Positions 1,397 to 13,257 of a DNA stretch of 13,262 bases are shown in pieces. The translations under genes were made by a program, and so were the position numbers. The notes under the pieces are model-generated. The model was not told where the DNA came from, ran no database searches, and saw only the letters and a program-made list of their open reading frames with translations. The stretch lies in NCBI GenBank assembly GCA_964388035.1, contig CAYLZE010000132.1, positions 1 through 13,262 of the forward strand. Reading direction: 5' to 3'. Within the stretch, counting starts at the first letter, position 1. Each line of letters opens with the position of its first letter. The DNA comes from an uncultured archaeon. Its GTDB lineage: Archaea; Asgardarchaeota; Lokiarchaeia; Sigyniarchaeales; SOKP01.

Positions 1397-3298
1397 TCAT
1401 TTTATTAATTCATGAATGATTCTACCTTGAGAAGTGTTCGGTGGTGATATTTCGAGTAAATGAGCGATGGTTGGGGCAACATCTATCAGATTAATTTTAG
1501 TTTTTAATTCTACTCCGTTCTTAATACCAGGGCCATTTATCATGAAAGGGACACTGATAGAAAAATCTCCATGTTTTTGGGTGGGTAAATAATAAGCATG
1601 TGCTGCAAAATTAGTAGTACAATCATAGGCTTCGGGTTTTACTATGAGATCGGTGGATTGTTCCGCAGCATTGAGTTGATTCAATCCTCCATCGAAAAGA
1701 GTGTATTTTGGATTCAAGAAATAAACCACATCTCCCACTCTTTCACCATCTTGACCCAAAAAACCCGCTTCCTCTTTTTTTAACGCTAGTTTAACGATAT
1801 TTTCATTGGTATCCGGATCTCTCATTTGATATAATGTTCTTATGATCTCTTCTCTTACCGTCTCATAATCTTCTGGTTCCACTACTCCTTGTGGATCTCT
1901 TCCTCTTAAATTGACCCAAACGTGCGGAGGTTCTAAATATGGAAATGCTACAGACTTCTGCCAATTAATAATGAATCTATTTTTAGTAGAATTCCATTCA
2001 TATTGAATAAGATTCGATTTATTAAAAGCTGAGGGAATATTCGCAACCCTCCAAGAGGGTATGGCGCCATGATCAGAAAGAAAGATTACAATTGTATCTT
2101 GATCGACACAAGATTTTATCAAATTCCCCACTAACTCGTCCACGATTTTATAGGATGTTCTCACAAATTCCCAAGCTTTTTCTGCATCTCTTTCATTGTA
2201 TAAAGGTGATTTCTCATATAATCGAGAAAGGGTCCTATGATTCACGCTATCCAAAAGATGAAAATGGAAAAAGCACAATTTCCAATTCAAATATTTTTTC
2301 ATGTAATTAATGGTTTCAGCGAGCGTAATCGCTTCTCTCCTGGCAAACAGGAGATGAGATTTTATCTTACCCGTTATCATGAAATCAACATCTTGTTCCT
2401 TAACTTCTTTAACCGACTCTAAAATGAAGGAATTTCTAATTATCTCTTGCGATATTTTTTCAGGTACCGTCCAGCCTTTTGTATTATAAAGACTACTGAC
2501 ATGGATTTTTATTTCACTTCCATCTTCCTTTAATTCAAGTAGCTTCACTCTAAATAGACAGGGTAAATCCCCATACTTCGTGGAAATCTTTAAAGATATC
2601 CATTCACTCCATTCCTCTTTTTCTATTATCGTCCACTCAGAGGAGAGGATTTGTTGAAGTGCCAAAACATCATAGTAATTTTTTTTAATGGAAAGAAGAT
2701 AAGCATTAATTGCTAGGGGTACCTCAATATCCTTGGATGTAATTGTTAGGATTACCTTTAAGGGAGGGAAATTACTTGTAAGCTCTAACGAATCTTTTGT
2801 ATCTGTAATTAAATATTCTTTTTGAGATCGATTTTTTGAATAAGATAATGTTTTTGGAGAGGATATTGTTCTTGGAAGAGATTCTGGAAGCGGCCAAGTA
2901 TATAAAGCCATTGCTCCATTCTTAAAGTTACTTGGCCAACCACTAGGATAATTTAATACAAAAGGAGTAATATTGTTACGGTCAGCAACATCCCATATAT
3001 ATTCTGCCGTGCAATATCTAGAAAGAGACCCCCTTGACCTGATATCCAATGCTAAATCAAAAGGTTCTCCCGGAAGATGGGTATAAAAACTTGTATTTCC
3101 ATGAACGGCAGTAGTTGCTCCCGTAGCAATGGTTGTCCAATTTGTAGGAGTATCACATGGGGGACAGGAAAGTCCCTCACAATAAACACCATTTTGATAT
3201 AAACTAGTGATATGGGGTATGATTCCTTCCTTCATGAATTGTTTAATCAAGCACGGAATGGATTGATCAATTCCGATAACCAATATGCTCTTTGACAT
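1397..3298 (-). CDS. Alkaline phosphatase superfamily protein (type I phosphodiesterase / nucleotide pyrophosphatase-like)
   Basis: ILVIGID (metal Asp), PCDTPTNWTTIATG (Thr nucleophile region), LDSVNH, FLSDHG, a C-terminal AAHAY His and LIDVAPTIAHLL; large central insertion; no signal peptide. Confidence 0.9.
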   Translation of the reverse strand: MSKSILVIGIDQSIPCLIKQFMKEGIIPHITSLYQNGVYCEGLSCPPCDTPTNWTTIATGATTAVHGNTSFYTHLPGEPFDLALDIRSRGSLSRYCTAEYIWDVADRNNITPFVLNYPSGWPSNFKNGAMALYTWPLPESLPRTISSPKTLSYSKNRSQKEYLITDTKDSLELTSNFPPLKVILTITSKDIEVPLAINAYLLSIKKNYYDVLALQQILSSEWTIIEKEEWSEWISLKISTKYGDLPCLFRVKLLELKEDGSEIKIHVSSLYNTKGWTVPEKISQEIIRNSFILESVKEVKEQDVDFMITGKIKSHLLFARREAITLAETINYMKKYLNWKLCFFHFHLLDSVNHRTLSRLYEKSPLYNERDAEKAWEFVRTSYKIVDELVGNLIKSCVDQDTIVIFLSDHGAIPSWRVANIPSAFNKSNLIQYEWNSTKNRFIINWQKSVAFPYLEPPHVWVNLRGRDPQGVVEPEDYETVREEIIRTLYQMRDPDTNENIVKLALKKEEAGFLGQDGERVGDVVYFLNPKYTLFDGGLNQLNAAEQSTDLIVKPEAYDCTTNFAAHAYYLPTQKHGDFSISVPFMINGPGIKNGVELKTKINLIDVAPTIAHLLEISPPNTSQGRIIHELIK

Positions 3299-3515: not shown

Positions 3516-4979
3516 TTAGCTTTTAGTTCTCTTTTTTAAAAGGTTAAAAGGAATTTTGAATCCTTCGGGGAAGGGAGATTTATACTTTTTATCTTTAAAG
3601 GTTTCTTCAAATTCTTTTTTCGCTTTCTCCACATATTCGGGCTTGTTCATAAAATCTAATGCGGTAAGTGCCATGACTTTTGCTGCTGCAATCATTCCTT
3701 TATGTCCAATGCTCATTCCTGCAGTAGCAGTATTTTGCCATGAGTGACCGGGGGAGCCCATGGTATGGCAGGCCGTGGAAAATTCCCCTAAAGGAGTGAC
3801 CCATGATACATCTGCTACATCAGTAGAACCTGGTAATACTTGTCCTTTTCCTATTGGAGGCAAGATTATAGGACATAAAGGTTCACTGAATAATTTTCTT
3901 GCCATATCTTGAAGGTTTTGTGGGATGAGTTTCATGTATCCTTCCATTGAATTTGGTGGGATGGACTTGTTAATCTCTTTTGCAAATTCTTGCTCTTCCT
4001 TATTAAATCGCGGAGGACCAATGAATTGCATGTTTTCTTGGATCACGTTACTGATGAATTCATTATGAATTGGATTATAGGTGCCACTTAGAAAATTTAC
4101 TTTAAGTTCTGTTTCTGTCATCATTTTTGCCCCTTCTGCAACTTTAATTAATCTGTTATAGATTTCTTCTACTTGATGTCGTTCGGGCGCCCGAACAAAA
4201 TAATATACTTCTGCTTCTTCCGGGACAACATTCGGAGCTTCTCCTCCATTAGTAATAATATAATGAATTCTAGCGTCCGGAATGATATGTTCTCGCATAT
4301 AATTTGCGCCAACATTCATTAACTCTACAGCATCCAATGCACTTCTCCCATTAAATGGGTCTCCTGCAGCATGAGCTGTTCTTCCGTAGAAATTAAAGAT
4401 AACGGAGTTCATGGCTAAAGCAGACATCGTAGCTACTGCATTAAAGTAAGCCGGATGCCATGCTATGGAGATGTCTACATCGTCGAAAACACCACCCGGC
4501 TTGACCATGTATCCCTTGGCATTATACATTTCTTCTGCTGGGCAACCATAATATCTAATTGTACCCTTTGCGTTCCCTTCTTCAATTGCCTTCTTAATCG
4601 CAAACACTGCCCCTATACCAGCAGCCCCCAATAGATTATGACCACACCCATGTCCCGGAGCTCCTTCCTTAAGGATTGCTTTTACAGGCTCTGCTTTTTG
4701 ACTAAGTCCCGGTAATGCATCATATTCGCCGAGTACTCCAATCACCGGTTTCCCCATCCCGTAGGTTGCAACGAACGCTGTGGGAATATCAGCAATGCTT
4801 TCTTTTACTTGAAAACCTTCCTCTTTTAAGGTATTAACTAGTAATTCAGAAGATTTATATTCTTCAAATCCTAATTCAGCAAATCCCCAAATTTTATCAC
4901 TTAATTCAATAAACCTATCTTGGTTGGCTTGAATCCATCTGGAATAATTCTTCTTAAGATCTTTTAAATCTTGTGACAT
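3516..4979 (-). CDS. abgB: M20-family amidohydrolase, p-aminobenzoyl-glutamate hydrolase subunit B (AbgB)-like
   Basis: EYDAL, GHGCGHN, GCPAEE, WHP, AHAAGDPFNGRSALDAVELMNVGANYMREH, GSTDVADVSW and GHSW motifs; AAGGTG SD at 4993-4988. Family is secure; substrate is not. Confidence 0.88.
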   Translation of the reverse strand: MSQDLKDLKKNYSRWIQANQDRFIELSDKIWGFAELGFEEYKSSELLVNTLKEEGFQVKESIADIPTAFVATYGMGKPVIGVLGEYDALPGLSQKAEPVKAILKEGAPGHGCGHNLLGAAGIGAVFAIKKAIEEGNAKGTIRYYGCPAEEMYNAKGYMVKPGGVFDDVDISIAWHPAYFNAVATMSALAMNSVIFNFYGRTAHAAGDPFNGRSALDAVELMNVGANYMREHIIPDARIHYIITNGGEAPNVVPEEAEVYYFVRAPERHQVEEIYNRLIKVAEGAKMMTETELKVNFLSGTYNPIHNEFISNVIQENMQFIGPPRFNKEEQEFAKEINKSIPPNSMEGYMKLIPQNLQDMARKLFSEPLCPIILPPIGKGQVLPGSTDVADVSWVTPLGEFSTACHTMGSPGHSWQNTATAGMSIGHKGMIAAAKVMALTALDFMNKPEYVEKAKKEFEETFKDKKYKSPFPEGFKIPFNLLKKRTKS

Positions 4980-5139: not shown

Positions 5140-6300
5140 TTAATAGAATGGAAAGTGATATTCTGGATCTCTTGGTTTTTCAAAGCTTCGCAGTTCTATT
5201 TCTTTATCAATGAATCCTTCTATATAACAAAGAAATCGGTAATCCTGTTCTAGTACAAGGGTAATCGCTGTTCCTTTTTTATTCATTCGAGAGGTTCTTC
5301 CAATGCGGTGTACGTAATTTTCAGGATACTTTGGAACATCATAATTAATGACATGGGACACGTTGTTAATATCAAGTCCTCTTGCTGCCACATCCGTAGC
5401 TATAAGCATGTTAATTTGATGCTTTTTAAAAGCTTTAAGAATGTGTTCCCTTTGGTGTTGAGAAAGATCTCCTGAAATTAGGTTGACTCTATAATCAAAT
5501 TTCTTAAGAGATGTTAATTTATGAGATAACCATGATGCGGTTTTTTTTGTATTGACGAATACTAATGCATGATCAGGCTTTTCTCTTCGTAATATTTTCA
5601 AAAAAGTTGAAAATTTTTGATCAAAGCGTTCTATCATATAATAATATTGTCTTGTATTCTTGACAGTAAGCTCATCTCTACTTAAATTGAGAAATTCGAA
5701 GGAATTTTTTGTGTGAGCCTTAACCATCTTTCTCATATCCTTATCAAGAGTTGCAGAAAATAACATTAACTGGTTCGATTTCGATGCTTCTTTAATCGAG
5801 GTTAAAATATATTTAATATCAGGAGCAAATCCCATATCCCAAAGACGGTCTGCTTCGTCTAAAACGACGAATTTTATATTGTTAAATGATAACTTCCGTC
5901 TCTTATATAAATCAATTATTCTTCCCGGAGTTCCAACAATTAGTTGTACTCCTCGATCGAGTTTCTCAATTTGATTATTAATGGAAACACCGCCATAAAT
6001 AGTCATCGATCTAGCCCGATCACGACTTATTTTTTCAAACACTTCATTTACTTGCTTTGCTAATTCCCTTGTCGGTTCAATAATGATACATTCGTTGGTA
6101 ACGGAATTCAACCGTTCAAGGATGGGTAATAGAAAAGCAAGAGTTTTCCCTGATCCTGTTTTAGCTTGGACCATAATGTTTTCCCCTTCTAAGATGAGGG
6201 GAATAGATTCTACTTGAACAGGAGTAGGTTTGGAAATGTTAAATATTGTTTTTAAGTCGTCAGTTGTCTGGTTATTAATACCTAATTCTATAAAATTCAA
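5140..6300 (-). CDS. DEAD-box RNA helicase (core only)
   Basis: Q motif PTPVQ, AKTGSGKT, PTRELA, GG, TPGRI, DEAD, SAT, FVNTK, ATDVAARGLD, HRIGRTSR. TTG start with a GAGTG SD-like motif upstream. Confidence 0.97.
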   Translation of the reverse strand: MNFIELGINNQTTDDLKTIFNISKPTPVQVESIPLILEGENIMVQAKTGSGKTLAFLLPILERLNSVTNECIIIEPTRELAKQVNEVFEKISRDRARSMTIYGGVSINNQIEKLDRGVQLIVGTPGRIIDLYKRRKLSFNNIKFVVLDEADRLWDMGFAPDIKYILTSIKEASKSNQLMLFSATLDKDMRKMVKAHTKNSFEFLNLSRDELTVKNTRQYYYMIERFDQKFSTFLKILRREKPDHALVFVNTKKTASWLSHKLTSLKKFDYRVNLISGDLSQHQREHILKAFKKHQINMLIATDVAARGLDINNVSHVINYDVPKYPENYVHRIGRTSRMNKKGTAITLVLEQDYRFLCYIEGFIDKEIELRSFEKPRDPEYHFPFY

Positions 6301-6498: not shown

Positions 6499-7848
6499 TT
6501 AAAAATCTGGTAATCTCTTAATTCTTGTCCATTCTTTATTCATCAAAAAATCAGACTCGTTTGAATCTTCATTTGAATAACTTAATAAGTCTACAATTAT
6601 GGTGGAAGGAGTAAAATACCGTGCTCCAAAACCTTTATCCTCTTGACAATGATAGGTTTCTCTAAATCCATTTCTCTTTATCATGTTTAGGGTTTTTTCA
6701 AGTAATTCTTGAGCAATATTGATAAATCCGTGCTTTAAAAGTCCTTTAATGATTAACCAATTAGTAATCATCCGCGATGAGTTTTTCCAAGAATCTTGAT
6801 TCGAAGAAATGGTACTTTTTTCATCCATTGAAATCTGAGGAACCGGATTCTTTGTCCAAAATTCTTTAGGATTTAATAAGTGGTCCTCCACTAAGCATGT
6901 AGCTTTATTCAATGGTAATCCGTCTAAAATTAGAGGGATTAATGAGCTTATGGTTTTAATTTTCTTCTTTGAGCAAGAAGGATCATGAATTCCTAGAAAA
7001 ATTTCAAGATCTGCATTCCAACATTTTTTTAACAGTGAATTTTCTATTTTTGTTGCTTTAAACAAACAATCTTGTTTTTCCATATCATTTTTTAACTCAT
7101 TGAAGAGAAATGCCAAATCCCGATACCCTTGAATAAAGAGACTATTGAATATTAAATCTTGATATAAAAATCCTTTATTCTTCCTAATCTCTGAAACATT
7201 CGAATTAGATTTCTCAACACAATCAAGTATTTGAATGTAACTTTCCGAGATTAGTTTAGTAGTACTTTGATCTTTAGTTCCTGAGTTAAAATATTCCTTG
7301 TAAATCATGGTGTCTTCGATTACATCTTCCCACGGATGAATTATATTTAAAAGATAATTTTCTTCTTTTGAAATAACACGAAAATTAGTTAGATAGTCGT
7401 AAAAGTTTTTGGTTTTCTGTATATTATCTTGCAAGAAGGTTCTCTCATAATTTTTATTATAAATAGCTTTCAATGCTTGAGCCAACAAGGGCATTATAGT
7501 CAAAGAACTGAAAGCTTGAAGCTCATACATGGTTTTAACTCGATTGGAGAGAAAAGGATAATTTCCGCTCCAAAAATTGATCCTCCTAATCATTCCCTCC
7601 TTAGTTTGTGTGAGAAATATTGATTCAAATTCTTTTTTAGCTAGTGCTAAATCGAAATGGCTATTAATTATTACATGAATGCATGAATCCTCCACGCGTT
7701 GAAATGGGTATATTCTGCGATTAGAGGAAGTATAAATGGTTGTTTTTGATAAGGTTTGATTTAATTTACACACTTTAAGATTAAATTCTAAGATATTCCT
7801 TGCTGCTTTTTCAAGCTTCAAAATTTGAGGATCGTTAGTTGAAATCAA
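6499..7848 (-). CDS. GH63/MGH1-like (alpha/alpha)6 glycoside hydrolase fold protein, active site apparently degenerate
   Basis: Motifs occur in family order but are eroded: YPFQRVEDS (cf. YP.QW.WDS), HPWEDVIED (cf. HPWESG.DNSP), LIPLIL, HLLNPKEFWTKNPVP, SWKNSSRMITNWLIIKGL (cf. YWRGP.W...NW), GFRETY...GFGARYF (cf. GF.EYY....G.G.GA..FSW). TTG start uncertain. Confidence 0.8.
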   Translation of the reverse strand: MISTNDPQILKLEKAARNILEFNLKVCKLNQTLSKTTIYTSSNRRIYPFQRVEDSCIHVIINSHFDLALAKKEFESIFLTQTKEGMIRRINFWSGNYPFLSNRVKTMYELQAFSSLTIMPLLAQALKAIYNKNYERTFLQDNIQKTKNFYDYLTNFRVISKEENYLLNIIHPWEDVIEDTMIYKEYFNSGTKDQSTTKLISESYIQILDCVEKSNSNVSEIRKNKGFLYQDLIFNSLFIQGYRDLAFLFNELKNDMEKQDCLFKATKIENSLLKKCWNADLEIFLGIHDPSCSKKKIKTISSLIPLILDGLPLNKATCLVEDHLLNPKEFWTKNPVPQISMDEKSTISSNQDSWKNSSRMITNWLIIKGLLKHGFINIAQELLEKTLNMIKRNGFRETYHCQEDKGFGARYFTPSTIIVDLLSYSNEDSNESDFLMNKEWTRIKRLPDF

Positions 7849-7965
7849 TTTTAGATCAATCTATTTAATTTAGAGGTAAAATATAATCAAAAAATATCAT
7901 AAAATATTAAAATAGATTAAAAAATTTCGATATTACGATTCAAAAGTAAAGGGCAATAAATCTTT

Positions 7966-8511
7966 TCATTTTCGCATGAAACTTGGCAACATGAGTTGAA
8001 AAATTTCCGCTATTTTCTTTAACTTGTCTTGAGCTTTTATTCTCGTGAGAATCAAGATACTTCTTTCCAATTCATCCCGATCTAATGATCCTCCGGAGTA
8101 AATAGCTTCTTTTTCATTGAGAAGTAATAGATATCTCACGTTTGGATTATTTACAATATTGATGTTAGGGGTACCTTTTAATTGATCATAATAGGTTTGA
8201 TAGATAGGGGGAATTGTACTCCGTTCATTAATTATTAGACTTATAGATATTTGTTTATTAGCAGCATTTATTAATTCTCTTGTATAGAAATTATCTACCT
8301 TTGGAGTAACCAGATTTATAAATTCCTCAGAAGAATGAAGCATTTCAATAATTTTTTCATTTACTAGATTTTTATGCCCTTCTCCACCACTCTGGTCTAT
8401 TTCAATCATCCCAACTAAATTAAGAATCTTACTTTCTAAATTTTGCACTTCCTTTTTTAATCGCATATTTTCTACTTTTAATTCAACCAATCTATCGGAC
8501 AATGAAATCAC
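7966..8511 (-). CDS. N-terminal coiled coil plus single PLD-like domain lacking the HKD motif
   Basis: Heptad leucines in LSDRLVELKVENMRLKKEVQNLESKILNL. PLD-fold pattern IIEMLHSSEEFINLVTP...ISISLIIN...VRYLLLLNEKEAIYSGGSL. The start may be TTG 8502, with GTGAT as its SD. Confidence 0.75.
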   Translation of the reverse strand: MISLSDRLVELKVENMRLKKEVQNLESKILNLVGMIEIDQSGGEGHKNLVNEKIIEMLHSSEEFINLVTPKVDNFYTRELINAANKQISISLIINERSTIPPIYQTYYDQLKGTPNINIVNNPNVRYLLLLNEKEAIYSGGSLDRDELERSILILTRIKAQDKLKKIAEIFQLMLPSFMRK

Positions 8512-8566
8512 TTTTTCAATATTTATTTGATATATGATAAATTCGAATTATTTATTTTCTATAAAT

Positions 8567-11149
8567 TTAATCTATTTGTCTCCAAGGGATTCCAAAAATT
8601 ATGTAGTTCGGAACTTTAAATGAGAGTTGGGAAGAACGCGGATTTAAACTTCCTTGCCTATTATCTCTGATACTTATCTCACATTCCTTAATGATACTTG
8701 GAGTAAGAAATTGTTTTTGTGCGTTTAACATTGAAATGCCTAACTGTTCTCCTTTAATCAGATTCTCATAAAAACGAGAAACCACTTGATCGTAAACAGC
8801 ATGCTCATTGATAGCAACCTTGAAAACTACTCCTGTTAGGTGACTTAAATTAATTAAGGAAGCAATTTGACTATAAGTTGAAATAGGATTCTCTATTTTT
8901 CGTCCATCAATATCGAACACTTGGATATCAAAGAAAATCAATAGACTAGTTCTGGAATGAGATTTTACGCTATTCTCTATTATTTCTCTTAATTTAATAA
9001 TATTATTATCATGGGTAATTAAAAAACTCTCTTGAGGGTTATTCATCGAATAAATCAGGTTTCCGATAATATGAATAATATTGAAATTATTTTCTTTTAA
9101 CGAATTTAGGATAAGATTTCGATTAGAATGTTCTTTGGTCAATGCAACAATCGTATTTATCTCTTCTTTAGAGGAAAATAAATTAGTAATGAATTCGCTT
9201 CTCTCTTCTCCTCCTGGAAATGGGTATATTAGGTCCTTTTTATTTTCTTTTTCATTCCATTTGAGAGGTCCTTTTGAATTTATACTTTCAATTAATAGCA
9301 CTCGCAATTCTGAGCTTTTCTTTCCTTGCTCCTTTTGTTTTACAAGATTACTCTCAAAATCGATTGCTTCTAATGTTGTTGGGTCGCTATAATAAGTACA
9401 AGAATAATTTAACATGAGAAATTTATTGGGATATATTAATTCATAAGGGAATGCTACTTCTTCTGTAATAAATAAGATATGAGGGGTAAAATTCAATATC
9501 GAAATCTCAAATTGAGATAATAAGCGACGCAATACCTTAGGTAATAAAATGTAGGATAATATTCCCAAATCTTCTATTGAAAAATCCCATCTAGGCTTCT
9601 GGTTGCTAAAGAAAATCTCATCATAAATATCGCGTAGCTGAGAATCATTCCAATATTCTGAAGTAATCGATATTTCTTTTATCTCATTTTCTATCGACAA
9701 CATTTTACAGTGAATCAATTTACCTGAAAAAAGGAAAATTGCAATTTGCTTTATAATGTAATTGGGATCGTTTAAAGAGGTGTCTTCAAACTCTTCCTGA
9801 AATGCATAGATCTTTGCTCGGTAGGCATCTGCTTTTACAATTAAATTTGATAAATCTTTCAAGTGAGTAAATATTTTTGGATTAAGATATGGCAGAATTT
9901 TCTGGGAAATAGAAATATTTTTCTCTTCAAAAAGTGCACGATAAAAAATTATGTTCCAGAATTCTTGCTCTTCAACTGAGGAAAACATGGATTTGATCCC
10001 CCATATATAATTATAAGTATAAAAATAATGGAAGAGATCTTGTTCAGTTTGCGGAATTTTGAGATGTGCACCTAATTTTTCTAAAGCTTGGAGTAAATAC
10101 TTTTTTTCTTTAACTTTAGAAAAATTCTTGGAAGCTTCTGCCCATAATTCAATTAAACCTTTATCGTAGGTCAAATCTGACTGATAGATATAAATATCTT
10201 CCAAAAAAGAATACAGTTCAAACGCAATTTCATATCGATTCCTTTCTATAAAAAATTTTATATTACGTTGAAGGAAAGTAATTGCCTCACCAAACGATTG
10301 ATATTCTTTTATTTTGTTATATAGATTTTTTAAAATAGCCGGGATCCACGTTGGTTCACTAATATTATTAAGATAACGAATCAAATCCTCTAAATCAGGG
10401 ATAAAAGAAGCGAAACTACGCTCGTTCATTGTGATTCTCTTGAGATTTCCAAATTCATTTTTTAAATCATTTGGAATTCTGTTTAACAATAAACCACTAA
10501 CTTCTTTGACAAAATCCGAATTATGAGATAATTGATATCTAAGGTTTACGTTTTCAAGCAATATATAAAGAAATAAAGCTCTCTTGCTAGGTTCAAGTTT
10601 TATTATGATTTTATTTAGCTCTTCCATGCTTTGGGTAAATAATTCTGTAGGAGATAAAGATTTAGTTAAAAAAGCTAATAAAACTTGCAACTCAATTAAT
10701 TTTAGATATTGATTATTCTTTTTAATAATTATAGAGAAAGAATTAATAAATTTAGAGATTCCTGATTCGGAAGTTTTCTCATTTTCTAAAATATATCGCA
10801 AAAAGTCTTCATAATATAAATTAAATAAATATAAATCATTCAATTTTGATAAAAATGAAAAAAAACGCTTAGATGCATCTACATATAAAATATAATCTTC
10901 TTTTAATCCCAAATCTTTTCTATGCATGAGATTCTGGATGTAAGTCCACCAGGAATTTGATATCAACATTATTAATTTATGCTTTCTCTGAACATCTAAC
11001 CATTCATTTTTTTCAATTGCTAAGTACAATCCGCCCAAGATTTTATCCGCCCAATGATGATTTGCATCTTTAAGCAAATTTCTAGCTAAAAATATTTTAT
11101 TTTGAAAATCTAACATGAAGTTTTTTTTATATTCAATACTCACGGACAA
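8567..11149 (-). CDS. Large alpha-helical (solenoid/TPR-like) protein with C-terminal CHAT/caspase-like domain lacking the His-Cys dyad
   Basis: C-terminal ~330 aa show CHAT hallmarks in order: LG...YILLP, ILFIT....FPYELI, LRVLLI, FNIIHIIGN, LIFFDIQ, RFYENLIKGEQLGISMLNAQ, YIIFGIP. N-terminal ~450 aa are amphipathic helices. Confidence 0.75.
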   Translation of the reverse strand: MSVSIEYKKNFMLDFQNKIFLARNLLKDANHHWADKILGGLYLAIEKNEWLDVQRKHKLIMLISNSWWTYIQNLMHRKDLGLKEDYILYVDASKRFFSFLSKLNDLYLFNLYYEDFLRYILENEKTSESGISKFINSFSIIIKKNNQYLKLIELQVLLAFLTKSLSPTELFTQSMEELNKIIIKLEPSKRALFLYILLENVNLRYQLSHNSDFVKEVSGLLLNRIPNDLKNEFGNLKRITMNERSFASFIPDLEDLIRYLNNISEPTWIPAILKNLYNKIKEYQSFGEAITFLQRNIKFFIERNRYEIAFELYSFLEDIYIYQSDLTYDKGLIELWAEASKNFSKVKEKKYLLQALEKLGAHLKIPQTEQDLFHYFYTYNYIWGIKSMFSSVEEQEFWNIIFYRALFEEKNISISQKILPYLNPKIFTHLKDLSNLIVKADAYRAKIYAFQEEFEDTSLNDPNYIIKQIAIFLFSGKLIHCKMLSIENEIKEISITSEYWNDSQLRDIYDEIFFSNQKPRWDFSIEDLGILSYILLPKVLRRLLSQFEISILNFTPHILFITEEVAFPYELIYPNKFLMLNYSCTYYSDPTTLEAIDFESNLVKQKEQGKKSSELRVLLIESINSKGPLKWNEKENKKDLIYPFPGGEERSEFITNLFSSKEEINTIVALTKEHSNRNLILNSLKENNFNIIHIIGNLIYSMNNPQESFLITHDNNIIKLREIIENSVKSHSRTSLLIFFDIQVFDIDGRKIENPISTYSQIASLINLSHLTGVVFKVAINEHAVYDQVVSRFYENLIKGEQLGISMLNAQKQFLTPSIIKECEISIRDNRQGSLNPRSSQLSFKVPNYIIFGIPWRQID

Positions 11150-11194
11150 GTTTTTTTACCCTTTTTGTTAAAGTTATTTCTACTAAAAATTCTA

Positions 11195-12358
11195 TCAAAC
11201 GTCTTTAGGAAGGTTATTTTTAGAATATTCTGCTTCATATCCGGGATTAATAAGCCAACCTTTTTGTAATAGATCTTTTGAATATAATATAGAAGCCCCA
11301 ATCCAACCCATATTGTCCCTTTCGTCTACAGCAAGGATTCGGATATTTTGACTTATTTTCTCGGGAAAATATTGCATTAATTGATTTTTAAGGCGTTCTT
11401 TTAAACCTGGAATTAAACTTCCCCCTCCGGTAAGAATAATATTAGACACTAATTCTTCCCAATTCTCCCGTTCCCAAACTTTCACGATATTTGCAATAAT
11501 TTCATCTAATCCGGCATAATTTACATGGAGGATATTAGGATAAAAAAGAGGTTCTGAGACGAGAAATCGTTCAGAATTCAGTTCTATATTACTCCCATCG
11601 GGTAGATTAACTACTTGCTTAAATTTAGTGGTTCCTTCCTTTATTTGCTTTATTTCTTTTTCAAAATTCAAAACACACAAGGAGCTTTTTTCTTTAATTT
11701 CTTTCGCAAGCCATTTATCAATGTAGGTATTCTGATTGGAGCTTTTTAAAATTAAGTTTAAATAAAATTCCGTGAGATCCTTTCCGGCGATGGGAAAAAT
11801 ATCTCGAGCCAATTCATTAGCAAATCCATGAACAGCAGAAATCACATAAGTATAGGATTCCCCTAAATTGATAACTATTCCTGTTCTTTTTTGTAATGTG
11901 GCAAAGATTGCTTGTTCTTCAGGTAAAAATAAAAGATATGGAAAATTGAACTCTTCAAAAAAAATCTTTCTTAATCGTTCTTTTTCTTGTTCGCTAACAT
12001 AAAAGGGATTAATCATTATGATGGGTTGTTTATATCTAAATTCGGGTGCGATTCCTAATTTATCGTAATGATGGAGAAAAAATTTCGCGAAAATATTATA
12101 ATTATTTTCTTTTTTAAATTCATGTAATTTTAAAACATGTTGATATTTCAAGGCATCATTTCCATAAAGATAATTAGTATCTTTTCCCTCAATAAATAAA
12201 TCTTCAAGTCCATCGATAACTTCTGTAAAAAATAAAAAATCTGTTTGATCTGTATAGATGCTGGGTATAATAATCTTCGGAGAATCATCTCCCGCCCATC
12301 CAAATCGAAAAGTGTTATTTCCTAAATTTACGATTAAAGCTCGCTCAAAATGAGACAT
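11195..12358 (-). CDS. Divergent actin-related protein (eukaryotic actin/Arp-type, Asgard actin paralogue)
   Basis: Colinear with actin throughout: FGWAGDDSPK..IPS, FEEFNFP, TGIV.NLG, AGKDLT, EIKEK, LPDG, ERF...EPLF.P, NIILTGGGS..PG..ERL, WIGASIL; 387 aa. Confidence 0.95.
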   Translation of the reverse strand: MSHFERALIVNLGNNTFRFGWAGDDSPKIIIPSIYTDQTDFLFFTEVIDGLEDLFIEGKDTNYLYGNDALKYQHVLKLHEFKKENNYNIFAKFFLHHYDKLGIAPEFRYKQPIIMINPFYVSEQEKERLRKIFFEEFNFPYLLFLPEEQAIFATLQKRTGIVINLGESYTYVISAVHGFANELARDIFPIAGKDLTEFYLNLILKSSNQNTYIDKWLAKEIKEKSSLCVLNFEKEIKQIKEGTTKFKQVVNLPDGSNIELNSERFLVSEPLFYPNILHVNYAGLDEIIANIVKVWERENWEELVSNIILTGGGSLIPGLKERLKNQLMQYFPEKISQNIRILAVDERDNMGWIGASILYSKDLLQKGWLINPGYEAEYSKNNLPKDV

Positions 12359-12381
12359 GATTTTTGAATCGTTAATATATA

Positions 12382-12390
12382 CTTAAAAAA
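12382..12390 (-). promoter_or_regulatory. Possible TATA box (TTTTTTAAG) for a leaderless or short-leader actin-like transcript
   Basis: 24-32 nt upstream of ATG 12358, with no SD before that ATG. Weak evidence because the DNA is very AT-rich. Confidence 0.3.
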
Positions 12391-12411
12391 TTCATGAAAT
12401 TATTGATATTA

Positions 12412-13257
12412 TTACATGATATATTGAAGTTGATGAATAAATTCATCTGTTTGTCTTTTTAATTGGTATTCTTTTACTTGTAATTCAAGCATTCCCAATA
12501 CTTTTTTAAATTCCTCTGCCATTTGTTCTATATCGACTTTTGCCATTTTTTCAACATCATCTCTCTTTATTTTAAAATACATTAACCCCGTTTTAATGCG
12601 ATCATAGGATTGATTGATATAATTTACTAATTGCATTGTATTTTTTTCCGTTACTTTCCTCATTTTCCTCAATATGGCAAGAATATTTGAAATTTGTGTT
12701 TCCCAGAGTTCATATTTTTGAGAGTCATCTTGATATAATTTCTCAATAAAAATAGCTAATTTAGTATAAATATCTTCTTCCTTTGGTACTTCTCCTTTCT
12801 GGACTTCAACCTGCTCTGGGATGTTCTGCTCTTCCGAAACATCCTGCTCTGATTCAGAAGGGGATAATGACTCTAGAGGGGGTATCTCAGAAGTCGTATC
12901 AGATGGAATCTCATTTTGCTTTTCAGTATTTTCATATTTCATCTCGGGAAGTTTTATTCTTTGTTGTTCTCCTTTTCGTTCTGTTAAGGGAATATCTTCC
13001 ATTAAATATTCTTTTACGATTTTTTGCTTTTCTATAGTTTCTTGCTCAGGTGAACTTTTTTCTCTTAATTCACTTTTTTCTTTTCCTTGTTCTAATTTTT
13101 CAACTTGATCTTCTTCGCCCTCATTAATTGTTCGCAATAATCCTTGCAAGGAAGTTTCAGTTTTTTTAGTCGATAACAATGCTGAATCTAAAGAATAAGA
13201 TGCTATCGAATCTTCCTCCTCCTTTTTTGACTTTGATTTTTTTTTAGGTCGAGGCAT
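12412..13257 (-). CDS. Hypothetical protein: basic N-terminus, acidic disordered linker, C-terminal coiled-coil/helical domain
   Basis: MPRPKKKSKSKK start; E/S/P/Q-rich residues ~48-160; amphipathic helices ~161-281. An in-frame TAA directly upstream of the ATG shows the ORF is complete. Confidence 0.85.
   Translation of the reverse strand: MPRPKKKSKSKKEEEDSIASYSLDSALLSTKKTETSLQGLLRTINEGEEDQVEKLEQGKEKSELREKSSPEQETIEKQKIVKEYLMEDIPLTERKGEQQRIKLPEMKYENTEKQNEIPSDTTSEIPPLESLSPSESEQDVSEEQNIPEQVEVQKGEVPKEEDIYTKLAIFIEKLYQDDSQKYELWETQISNILAILRKMRKVTEKNTMQLVNYINQSYDRIKTGLMYFKIKRDDVEKMAKVDIEQMAEEFKKVLGMLELQVKEYQLKRQTDEFIHQLQYIM

Follow-up and report, generated by a model that had tools for sequence, protein, structure and literature searches.

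A four-gene cassette of Lokiarchaeia encoding a divergent actin-related protein and a putative separase-like partner

Background

Eukaryotic actin-related proteins (Arps) act as subunits of complexes, and in dynactin, where Arp11 occurs with p62, p25 and p27, as in the nuclear Arp4/Arp8 modules, a divergent Arp has one of its ends covered by a dedicated partner. Among the archaeal actins, crenactin is bound in its barbed-end cleft by arcadin-2. The crenactin-arcadin cluster of the Thermoproteales encodes this actin along with dedicated small partners, and arcadin-2 acts on crenactin (PMC12050087, PMC11188069). Besides Lokiactin, Asgard genomes encode several further actin paralogues, and for one of these the locus described here, on contig CAYLZE010000132.1 of an uncultured member of the Sigyniarchaeales (assembly GCA_964388035.1), names a candidate partner and a predicted interface. 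The Arp in question is orthologous to UYP47647.1, which is given in the available text of the Candidatus L. ossiferum study as one of three Arps of that organism, transcribed several-fold below Lokiactin (PMC9834061).

The window, by which is meant the whole contig of 13,262 nucleotides (G000:C132), belongs to a genome of 5.47 Mb and 33% GC; the genomes of its relatives are recorded as Promethearchaeota/Promethearchaeia (= Lokiarchaeia). At issue are five consecutive genes which encode, in reading order, a coiled-coil (CC) protein, the Arp, a protein with tetratricopeptide repeats (TPR) and a CHAT-like domain, a phospholipase D (PLD)-like protein and a GH63-like protein. Each of the five is present in a single copy in the source genome, along with three other actins, Lokiactin included.

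Conservation of the cassette

Neighbours were counted first around 47 Arp orthologues plus the window (48 loci), where CC was present in 48/48, CHAT in 45/48, PLD in 39/48 and GH63 in 5/48, and then over 154 non-redundant loci, in which CC-Arp-CHAT-PLD is the commonest order. In this second set Arp and CHAT are adjacent in 135 of 137 loci and share their orientation in all 137, with a median gap of 24 nt and frequent overlap; CC and Arp are adjacent in 130 of 131, CHAT and PLD in 126 of 130, and a GH63-like gene lies behind PLD in 7 of 154. The conserved module consists of four genes (CC, Arp, TPR/pseudo-CHAT and pseudo-PLD), not five.

In the source organism's family, here called f1, the locus is collinear over about ten genes (NnrDE, gelsolin-like, roadblock, vWA, AbrB-ACT, the four genes, Eco57I-type methylase, DEAD and MglA-like GTPase). 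Since this long collinearity takes in unrelated genes, synteny inside f1 is weak evidence, and other families provide the stronger test. There the gene-neighbourhood comparison proposed in the initial annotation finds the order CC-Arp-CHAT-PLD kept: P. syntrophicum (DSAG12_01478-01481) and Ca. L. ossiferum (NEF87_003933-003930) have all four genes in that order, at about 20-40% identity and with different flanks, their gelsolin-like gene lying some 310 kb from the cassette. A different arrangement, Arp-CHAT-CC with no gap between, is seen in one locus (L110) and apparently also, across a contig break, in genome G053, the PLD gene being elsewhere in both; in L111 Arp and CHAT overlap by 4 nt. 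The full-length CHAT-like family is found in 117/134 f1, 7/14 f2 and 1/1 f3 genomes, and three genomes of another family of the class give weak matches to the CHAT-like C-terminal domain alone; no match was found in the more distant genomes among the 400 searched.

Neither Arp nor CHAT was found in the genomes of genera g14 (G037, G040 and G044, the last a single closed contig) and g17 (G042, G046), all of which retain CC and PLD, directly adjacent to each other. As CC and PLD stay neighbours there, they are independent of the Arp. In the tree of CC plus PLD, g14 branches as the sister of the group formed by L. ossiferum and P. syntrophicum (96/95), with g17 standing apart, and a single clade of the five pair-less genomes is rejected (approximately unbiased test, p = 0.003); if this tree reflects descent, the Arp-CHAT pair was lost twice independently. 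The Arp and the pseudo-CHAT protein are the core pair, lost together while CC and PLD stayed.

Other lines of evidence were less informative. Inter-protein coevolution over 106 paired loci (effective number about 49) gave noise, with even the top within-protein pairs implausible. A promoter and terminator scan came out at chance level, using a sigma-70 model, which is the wrong one for archaea. The only RNA run over the P. syntrophicum locus yields one 37.6-kb contig of flat depth, with genes on both strands alike, and bears on neither transcription nor co-transcription.

The actin-related protein

The Arp belongs to the actin family (PF00022, E 2e-48, residues 6-375; PDB actins, E 5e-43). No eukaryotic Arp was among its top 60 PDB matches, the best of which are conventional actins. 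It is also distinct from Lokiactin, to which, in the source genome, it is 27% identical: its DNase I-binding loop (D-loop) is replaced, actin D154 has become N and H161 has become Y.

Residues were counted in a 73-row orthologue alignment with actin numbering. The actin nucleotide-binding positions D11, G13, K18, G156, K213, E214 and G301-G302 are largely retained in the Arp family: G13, G156, K213 and G301 are invariant (73/73), position 18 is R or K in 69/73, and phosphate-1 position 11 is D or E in 71/73, the N11 of the window copy being nearly private. Residue 154, on the other hand, is mostly N and 161 mostly Y, and the HGI sensor loop is remodelled. For the Q137 position an ungapped alignment points to E147, with E or D in 60/73 rows, and a HMMER alignment with two gaps points instead to Q149; Glu probably replaces Q137 in the family. 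MreB and ParM use Glu at the equivalent position. Judged by these residues, the nucleotide pocket is largely kept and nucleotide binding is likely, while the hydrolysis site appears rewired, with a probable E at Q137, N at D154 and Y at H161. The term "non-enzymatic", applied to the whole cluster in the initial annotation, is thus not supported for the Arp, most of whose nucleotide-binding residues are kept.

In place of the actin D-loop, residues 38-57 form a longer, conserved, family-specific segment. Several barbed-face residues are conserved in the family as well (G178, F179, W295, R297 and F331), and positions 286 and 288 of actin have kept their acidic residues, though identity of the barbed-face consensus to the source-genome Lokiactin is 23%, against 27% overall. 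Unlike the polymerising Lokiactin, the Arp diverges fast, with about 30% identity between families.

Two observations concern actin gene models. The L. ossiferum orthologue (L078:9700-10788, genome G055) is entered in GenBank as a 307-aa protein, UYP47647.1, which is without the phosphate-1 loop; the open frame is 362 aa long, as in WP_457920139.1. In the source genome, the region G000:C117:1609-2619 belongs to another actin paralogue, of 513 aa, with an insertion bearing two zinc-ribbon-like CxxC pairs before the C-terminal actin segment.

The TPR/pseudo-CHAT partner and the predicted complex

A structure model of the partner (predicted local distance difference test score, pLDDT, 83; predicted template-modelling score, pTM, 0.74) shows a TPR-like solenoid (residues 1-445), a beta-rich pseudo-protease domain (about 466-600) and, behind these, a caspase-HetF fold (about 613-860). 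In both fold searches the top matches are Csx29, separase and DdvA, with a Foldseek E of 1.8e-10 and, in VIA, Z 17.9 and a root-mean-square deviation (rmsd) of 3.9 over 297 residues to 7zoq_A and Z 16.9 to separase 5fc2_B. The positions of the catalytic dyad were placed by alignment to relatives with intact HYAGH and LNAC motifs; in every CHAT orthologue the His-Cys dyad is lost, with never H and never C at those positions. By its residues, the CHAT domain is predicted to be catalytically dead in all orthologues, though N624, P628, W631, N697 and P705 around the former active site are conserved.

Among related proteins, a 1012-aa one (P0081, L108:6805-9843) has TPRs, a helical region at its N-terminus and a CHAT domain whose His-Cys dyad is intact, has no adjoining actin gene, and is a candidate active cousin of the pseudo-protease. 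Two others (P0084 and P0093) look by eye like leucine-rich repeat, small GTPase and CHAT proteins with intact dyads.

A complex of partner residues 1-600 with Arp residues 4-376 was modelled from a 73-row alignment of each. It scored 0.71, where the best of three controls scored 0.00; in calibration, 58 of 80 solved complexes attained the mark, as against 2 of 110 mismatched pairs. Runs share at least 95% of their contacts, and pLDDT is 86 or higher for the partner as for the Arp. The model, far above its controls, thus speaks for an interaction of the Arp with a partner, as had been anticipated. It predicts that the N-terminal TPRs sit on the pointed end of the Arp, over the remodelled D-loop, with partner residues 18-37, 86-101 and 113-141 on Arp 38-57, 71-76, 212 and 252-255, which by alignment to actin and Lokiactin are the D-loop region, a segment near actin 60-65, the 203 region and 242-245. 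In actin, these pointed-end surfaces serve the long-pitch filament contacts. The predicted geometry leaves the barbed face of the Arp free. In the partner, conservation is higher at the interface than over the remaining solenoid (0.64 vs 0.58, p = 0.025). A PDB search turned up no sequence relative of the partner, so that recall of a solved complex by the modelling program is less likely, though possible.

The CC and pseudo-PLD companions

The CC protein has a basic N-terminus, a variable low-complexity middle and a conserved helical C-terminal domain (about 160-278), and no usable match to it was found in Pfam or the ESM Atlas. The pseudo-PLD protein consists of a short N-terminal coiled coil and a single PLD/Nuc-fold domain, a fold confirmed in VIA by NucT (Z 19.4, rmsd 2.2, 142 residues), FAM83A (Z 17.2) and TrmB (Z 14.1), the top 28 rows all being PLD-fold. 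The HxKxxxxD motif has become VxYxxxxN, with neither His nor Lys at those positions in 128 orthologues, and the protein would be catalytically dead in all of them; a C-terminal LPSFMR motif is nearly invariant. In two more distant families PLD-like relatives are present in the absence of the other cassette genes, which makes the PLD gene older than the cassette and the Arp-CHAT pair.

Distant coiled-coil plus PLD-like relatives with a similar C-terminal motif were seen in two other families (L242-L245; G057, G059, G060) in other gene contexts, one of them behind a 2136-aa gene. In G042, one of the genomes without Arp and CHAT, a gelsolin-like paralogue (L240:5979-6929) lies directly behind CC-PLD and is 31% identical over 94 aa to the f1 gelsolin-like protein.

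Layout of the window and the GH63-like gene

The window holds nine genes, all on the minus strand (Table 1), the five of the cluster being followed by those for a DEAD-box helicase, an M20 peptidase, a phosphodiesterase-family protein and a membrane protein. Upstream of the CC start codon the contig runs on for just 5 nt, and the promoter therefore lies outside it. The gaps from CC to GH63 are 53, 45, 55 and 117 nt, exactly as first described; those further left are 198, 160, 217 and 233 nt, with another 419 nt to the contig end. An accompanying argument, that the cluster is set off by the long T-tracts found after other genes, did not hold: the longest T runs are T3-T6 within the cluster and T9, T12 and T9 after the DEAD, M20 and last genes, but GH63 and the phosphodiesterase gene are followed by just T6 and T5, so that T-tracts do not mark the edge of the cluster.

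Table 1. Features of the window and their positions.
Feature	Position	Strand	Remarks
CC protein, 281 aa	12412..13257	minus	companion gene; orthologues NEF87_003933, DSAG12_01478
Arp, 387 aa	11195..12358	minus	core member; orthologue UYP47647.1 (Ca. L. ossiferum)
Arp residues 38-57, D-loop replacement	12188..12247	minus	family-specific; main predicted contact to TPR partner
TPR/pseudo-CHAT protein, 860 aa	8567..11149	minus	core member; Csx29/separase architecture, catalytic dyad absent
Pseudo-CHAT N-terminal TPR helices, residues 18-141	10727..11098	minus	predicted Arp-binding surface
N697, catalytic His position of CHAT	9059..9061	minus	Asn in 138/141 rows, never His
Q743, catalytic Cys position of CHAT	8921..8923	minus	Gln in 125/138 rows, never Cys
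PLD-like protein, 181 aa	7966..8511	minus	companion gene; motif VxYxxxxN at nt 8116-8139
GH63-like protein, 449 aa	6499..7848	minus	degenerate MGH1/GH63-like; outside conserved module
DEAD-box helicase	5140-6300	minus	follows cluster block in 22/48 loci
M20 amidohydrolase	3516-4979	minus	
Phosphodiesterase/alkaline-phosphatase-family protein	1397-3298	minus	
Multi-pass membrane protein, 247 aa	420-1163	minus	no Pfam match

The GH63-like protein has the fold and family signature of its name (PF22422, E 1e-32; T. thermophilus TTHA0978, E 1e-9), but has EDS, EDVIE and WKNSSR in place of the active-site motifs WDS, ESGxD and WRGPxW. Degenerate copies are those of the window, a congener and one more, which form a long-branched clade (99/99), while the orthologues at L098 and L099 keep all three motifs. 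The gene is present in 5 of 36 family genomes and was not found in P. syntrophicum or L. ossiferum. It is a patchy passenger, a lineage-specific insertion behind PLD that stands outside the module. The degenerate form nevertheless appears to be constrained (identity 69% at second positions vs 28% at four-fold sites) and may have a local role. The initial annotation, which counted it as the least certain member, was correct on all four recognisable folds (actin, CHAT, PLD and GH63), but its statement that all four have altered catalytic motifs holds family-wide for CHAT and PLD, partly for the Arp, where N11 is near-private, and for GH63 in this copy alone; the close orthologues with intact motifs are what that annotation had itself named as grounds for refuting its proposal.

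Several side observations concern this part of the locus. The degenerate GH63 copies end in a strongly conserved tail of about 17 aa (window 6499-6560), finishing in KRLPxF and lacking in distant GH63 relatives, which is possibly a binding motif. Elsewhere, the GH63-like gene behind PLD is split in two frames (L070:14278-15462, G012), which fits a decaying insertion, and in G005 a 995-aa protein with a TrmB helix-turn-helix domain and a long coiled coil is encoded between PLD and an intact GH63 gene (L092:3790-6777). In f1 the gene usually behind PLD is an Eco57I-type methylase (L032:14597-16801 and 88 similar loci); in the window and its congener the locus is without it and has GH63 in its place. 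A 4474-nt contig of the source genome (G000:C186) carries NnrDE, gelsolin-like, roadblock and AbrB-ACT genes on its minus strand and ends just past AbrB-ACT; it is probably the upstream continuation of the window across an assembly gap, though the congener locus L031 has four other genes between.

The gelsolin, roadblock, vWA, AbrB-ACT, methylase, DEAD and GTPase neighbours were considered as members and rejected, their linkage being confined to f1. A role in defence, suggested by the CHAT, PLD and methylase genes, was also rejected, in this case without a PADLOC or PHROGs search: the cassette is single-copy and vertically inherited, and has no active effector.

Interpretation

With moderate confidence, we read the four-gene cassette as two pairs, with the Arp and the pseudo-CHAT protein forming a dedicated heterodimer in which the TPRs block the pointed end. 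The first TPR hairpins of the dead protease would grip Arp subdomains 2 and 4 by way of the D-loop-replacing segment; this grip would cover the surfaces of actin's long-pitch filament contacts and so block self-polymerisation of the Arp. The bound Arp would then be a probably nucleotide-loaded subunit rather than a filament former, with the dead caspase-fold end staying free as a binding module. The CC and pseudo-PLD proteins would be companions able to persist without the pair, and the GH63-like protein a passenger.

A number of points weigh against this. Within f1, the unrelated AbrB-ACT and Eco57I-type methylase genes are linked almost as tightly, and the two losses are supported by one closed genome, the rest being drafts. 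The Arp-TPR binding is predicted, a matter of model confidence rather than measurement; the calibration applies just roughly, as our own alignments were used, and the modelled partner ends at residue 600, with the CHAT C-terminal domain (601-860) outside the model. On the Arp side, the interface shows no significant excess of conservation over the remaining residues (p = 0.16). For CC and PLD, any role in the same complex as the Arp and pseudo-CHAT is no more than inferred.

The alternatives overlap with the preferred reading, and their probabilities are not to be added up to a whole. One that is a specific version of it, and which we hold as tentative, is that the unit caps the pointed end of Lokiactin filaments or seeds their nucleation: the Arp, its own pointed end blocked by the partner, would dock on a filament or template one with its free barbed face. 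Arp11-p62 in dynactin and Arp2/3 at the branch are parallels. The free barbed face of the model, with its family-conserved residues and acidic 286/288, would suit such docking, as would the gelsolin-like and roadblock genes upstream in f1, but the gelsolin linkage is lost in the cultured species and the barbed face, at 23% identity, is no closer to Lokiactin than the protein as a whole. In addition, the enriched proteins named in the main text of the Lokiactin co-immunoprecipitation study are profilin, gelsolins and an ARF GTPase, and not the cassette proteins (PMC13716822). Given this barbed face and the silence of that text, a stand-alone regulatory or adaptor complex, comparable to the nuclear Arp modules, is ranked as slightly more likely than a Lokiactin cap or seed. 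A broader form, just as tentative, has the dead separase-like protein capping the pointed end of the Arp and the unit either seeding or capping Lokiactin filaments or coupling them to CC/PLD cargo; if this were true, the cassette would represent an analogue of the dynactin pointed end or of Arp2/3 that was built independently and before the eukaryotes.

Somewhat less probable is a sequestration switch, in which the Arp would be an active, polymerising ATPase with a MreB/ParM-type Glu, kept monomeric by the pseudo-CHAT protein until released by a signal that the dead protease domain senses. DNase I on the actin pointed end provides a parallel. The D or E at position 11, the invariant G13, G156, K213 and G301, and the E or D (60/73) at the ungapped Q137 position are as expected for such an ATPase, and in Craspase and DdvA the TPR-CHAT proteins serve as allosteric sensors (PMC11506125); the mostly N at D154, the replaced H161, the remodelled D-loop and HGI sensor loop, and a fast divergence unlike that of the polymerising Lokiactin argue the other way.

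The single obligate scaffold of all four (or five) proteins that the initial annotation had proposed is, we think, likewise rather unlikely. The order CC-Arp-CHAT-PLD is dominant and spans three families, and nine f1 genomes without a CHAT match are also without a CC or Arp match, seven being without a match for PLD; yet five genomes of two lineages keep CC and PLD without Arp and CHAT, the PLD gene is elsewhere in G053 and L110, and the GH63-like gene is confined to those 5 of 36 genomes, with intact orthologues, so that a single five-protein scaffold is not supported. Least probable, and in our view improbable, is an inherited gene order without any physical complex, for although f1 is collinear over some ten genes, unrelated ones included, the core outlasts flank turnover and internal shuffling, has dropped out twice as exactly that pair, and holds up against three controls in the complex test.

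Comparison with known systems

Taking, then, the reading of a dedicated Arp/pseudo-CHAT heterodimer, the window Arp itself is a published gene, being the syntenic orthologue of UYP47647.1, one of the non-Lokiactin actins of L. ossiferum (PMC9834061), although the available text of that paper gives no partner, operon or function for it. In the literature outside subscription journals, UYP47647 turned up in one paper only, and none was found that describes the cassette, its core pair or the dead partner with its separase-like architecture, or that describes a partner for any Asgard Arp.

The closest known architecture for the partner is that of Csx29 (of the type III-E Craspase), separase and DdvA, which similarly have a TPR solenoid, a pseudo-protease domain and a caspase fold, and in which the TPR part binds the partner. 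These proteins keep the His-Cys dyad (PMC11506125), whereas here both residues are gone in all orthologues; their partners are Cas7-11, securin and a sigma factor, here an actin fold. Dead PLD-fold domains are known from FAM83, the TrmB sugar-binding domain, MITD1 and vaccinia F13, of which the pseudo-PLD protein shares the fold; it differs in having just one such domain, which follows a short coiled coil, and a near-invariant C-terminal motif, and it belongs to a Promethearchaeota-specific family.

With dynactin and the nuclear Arp modules, the likeness would lie in an Arp end covered by a partner, which in the cassette is predicted from model geometry alone, and no homology of the cassette partners to p62/p25/p27 or HSA proteins was found. 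With the crenactin-arcadin cluster, the likeness is that of an archaeal actin with dedicated partners, but crenactin is polymerising and its partners are of other families. Because the module is present in both cultured Lokiarchaeia, it is testable now, and if the preferred reading is true, an actin has been turned into a capped complex subunit in archaea too, by means of a TPR-CHAT protease fold otherwise known from separase and CRISPR immunity. As the module is confined to one order in the genomes searched, it is more likely a parallel invention than the ancestor of a eukaryotic complex. With a published Arp and known fold types, this four-gene cassette with its two-gene core is an undescribed variant on the theme of the Arp as a subunit.

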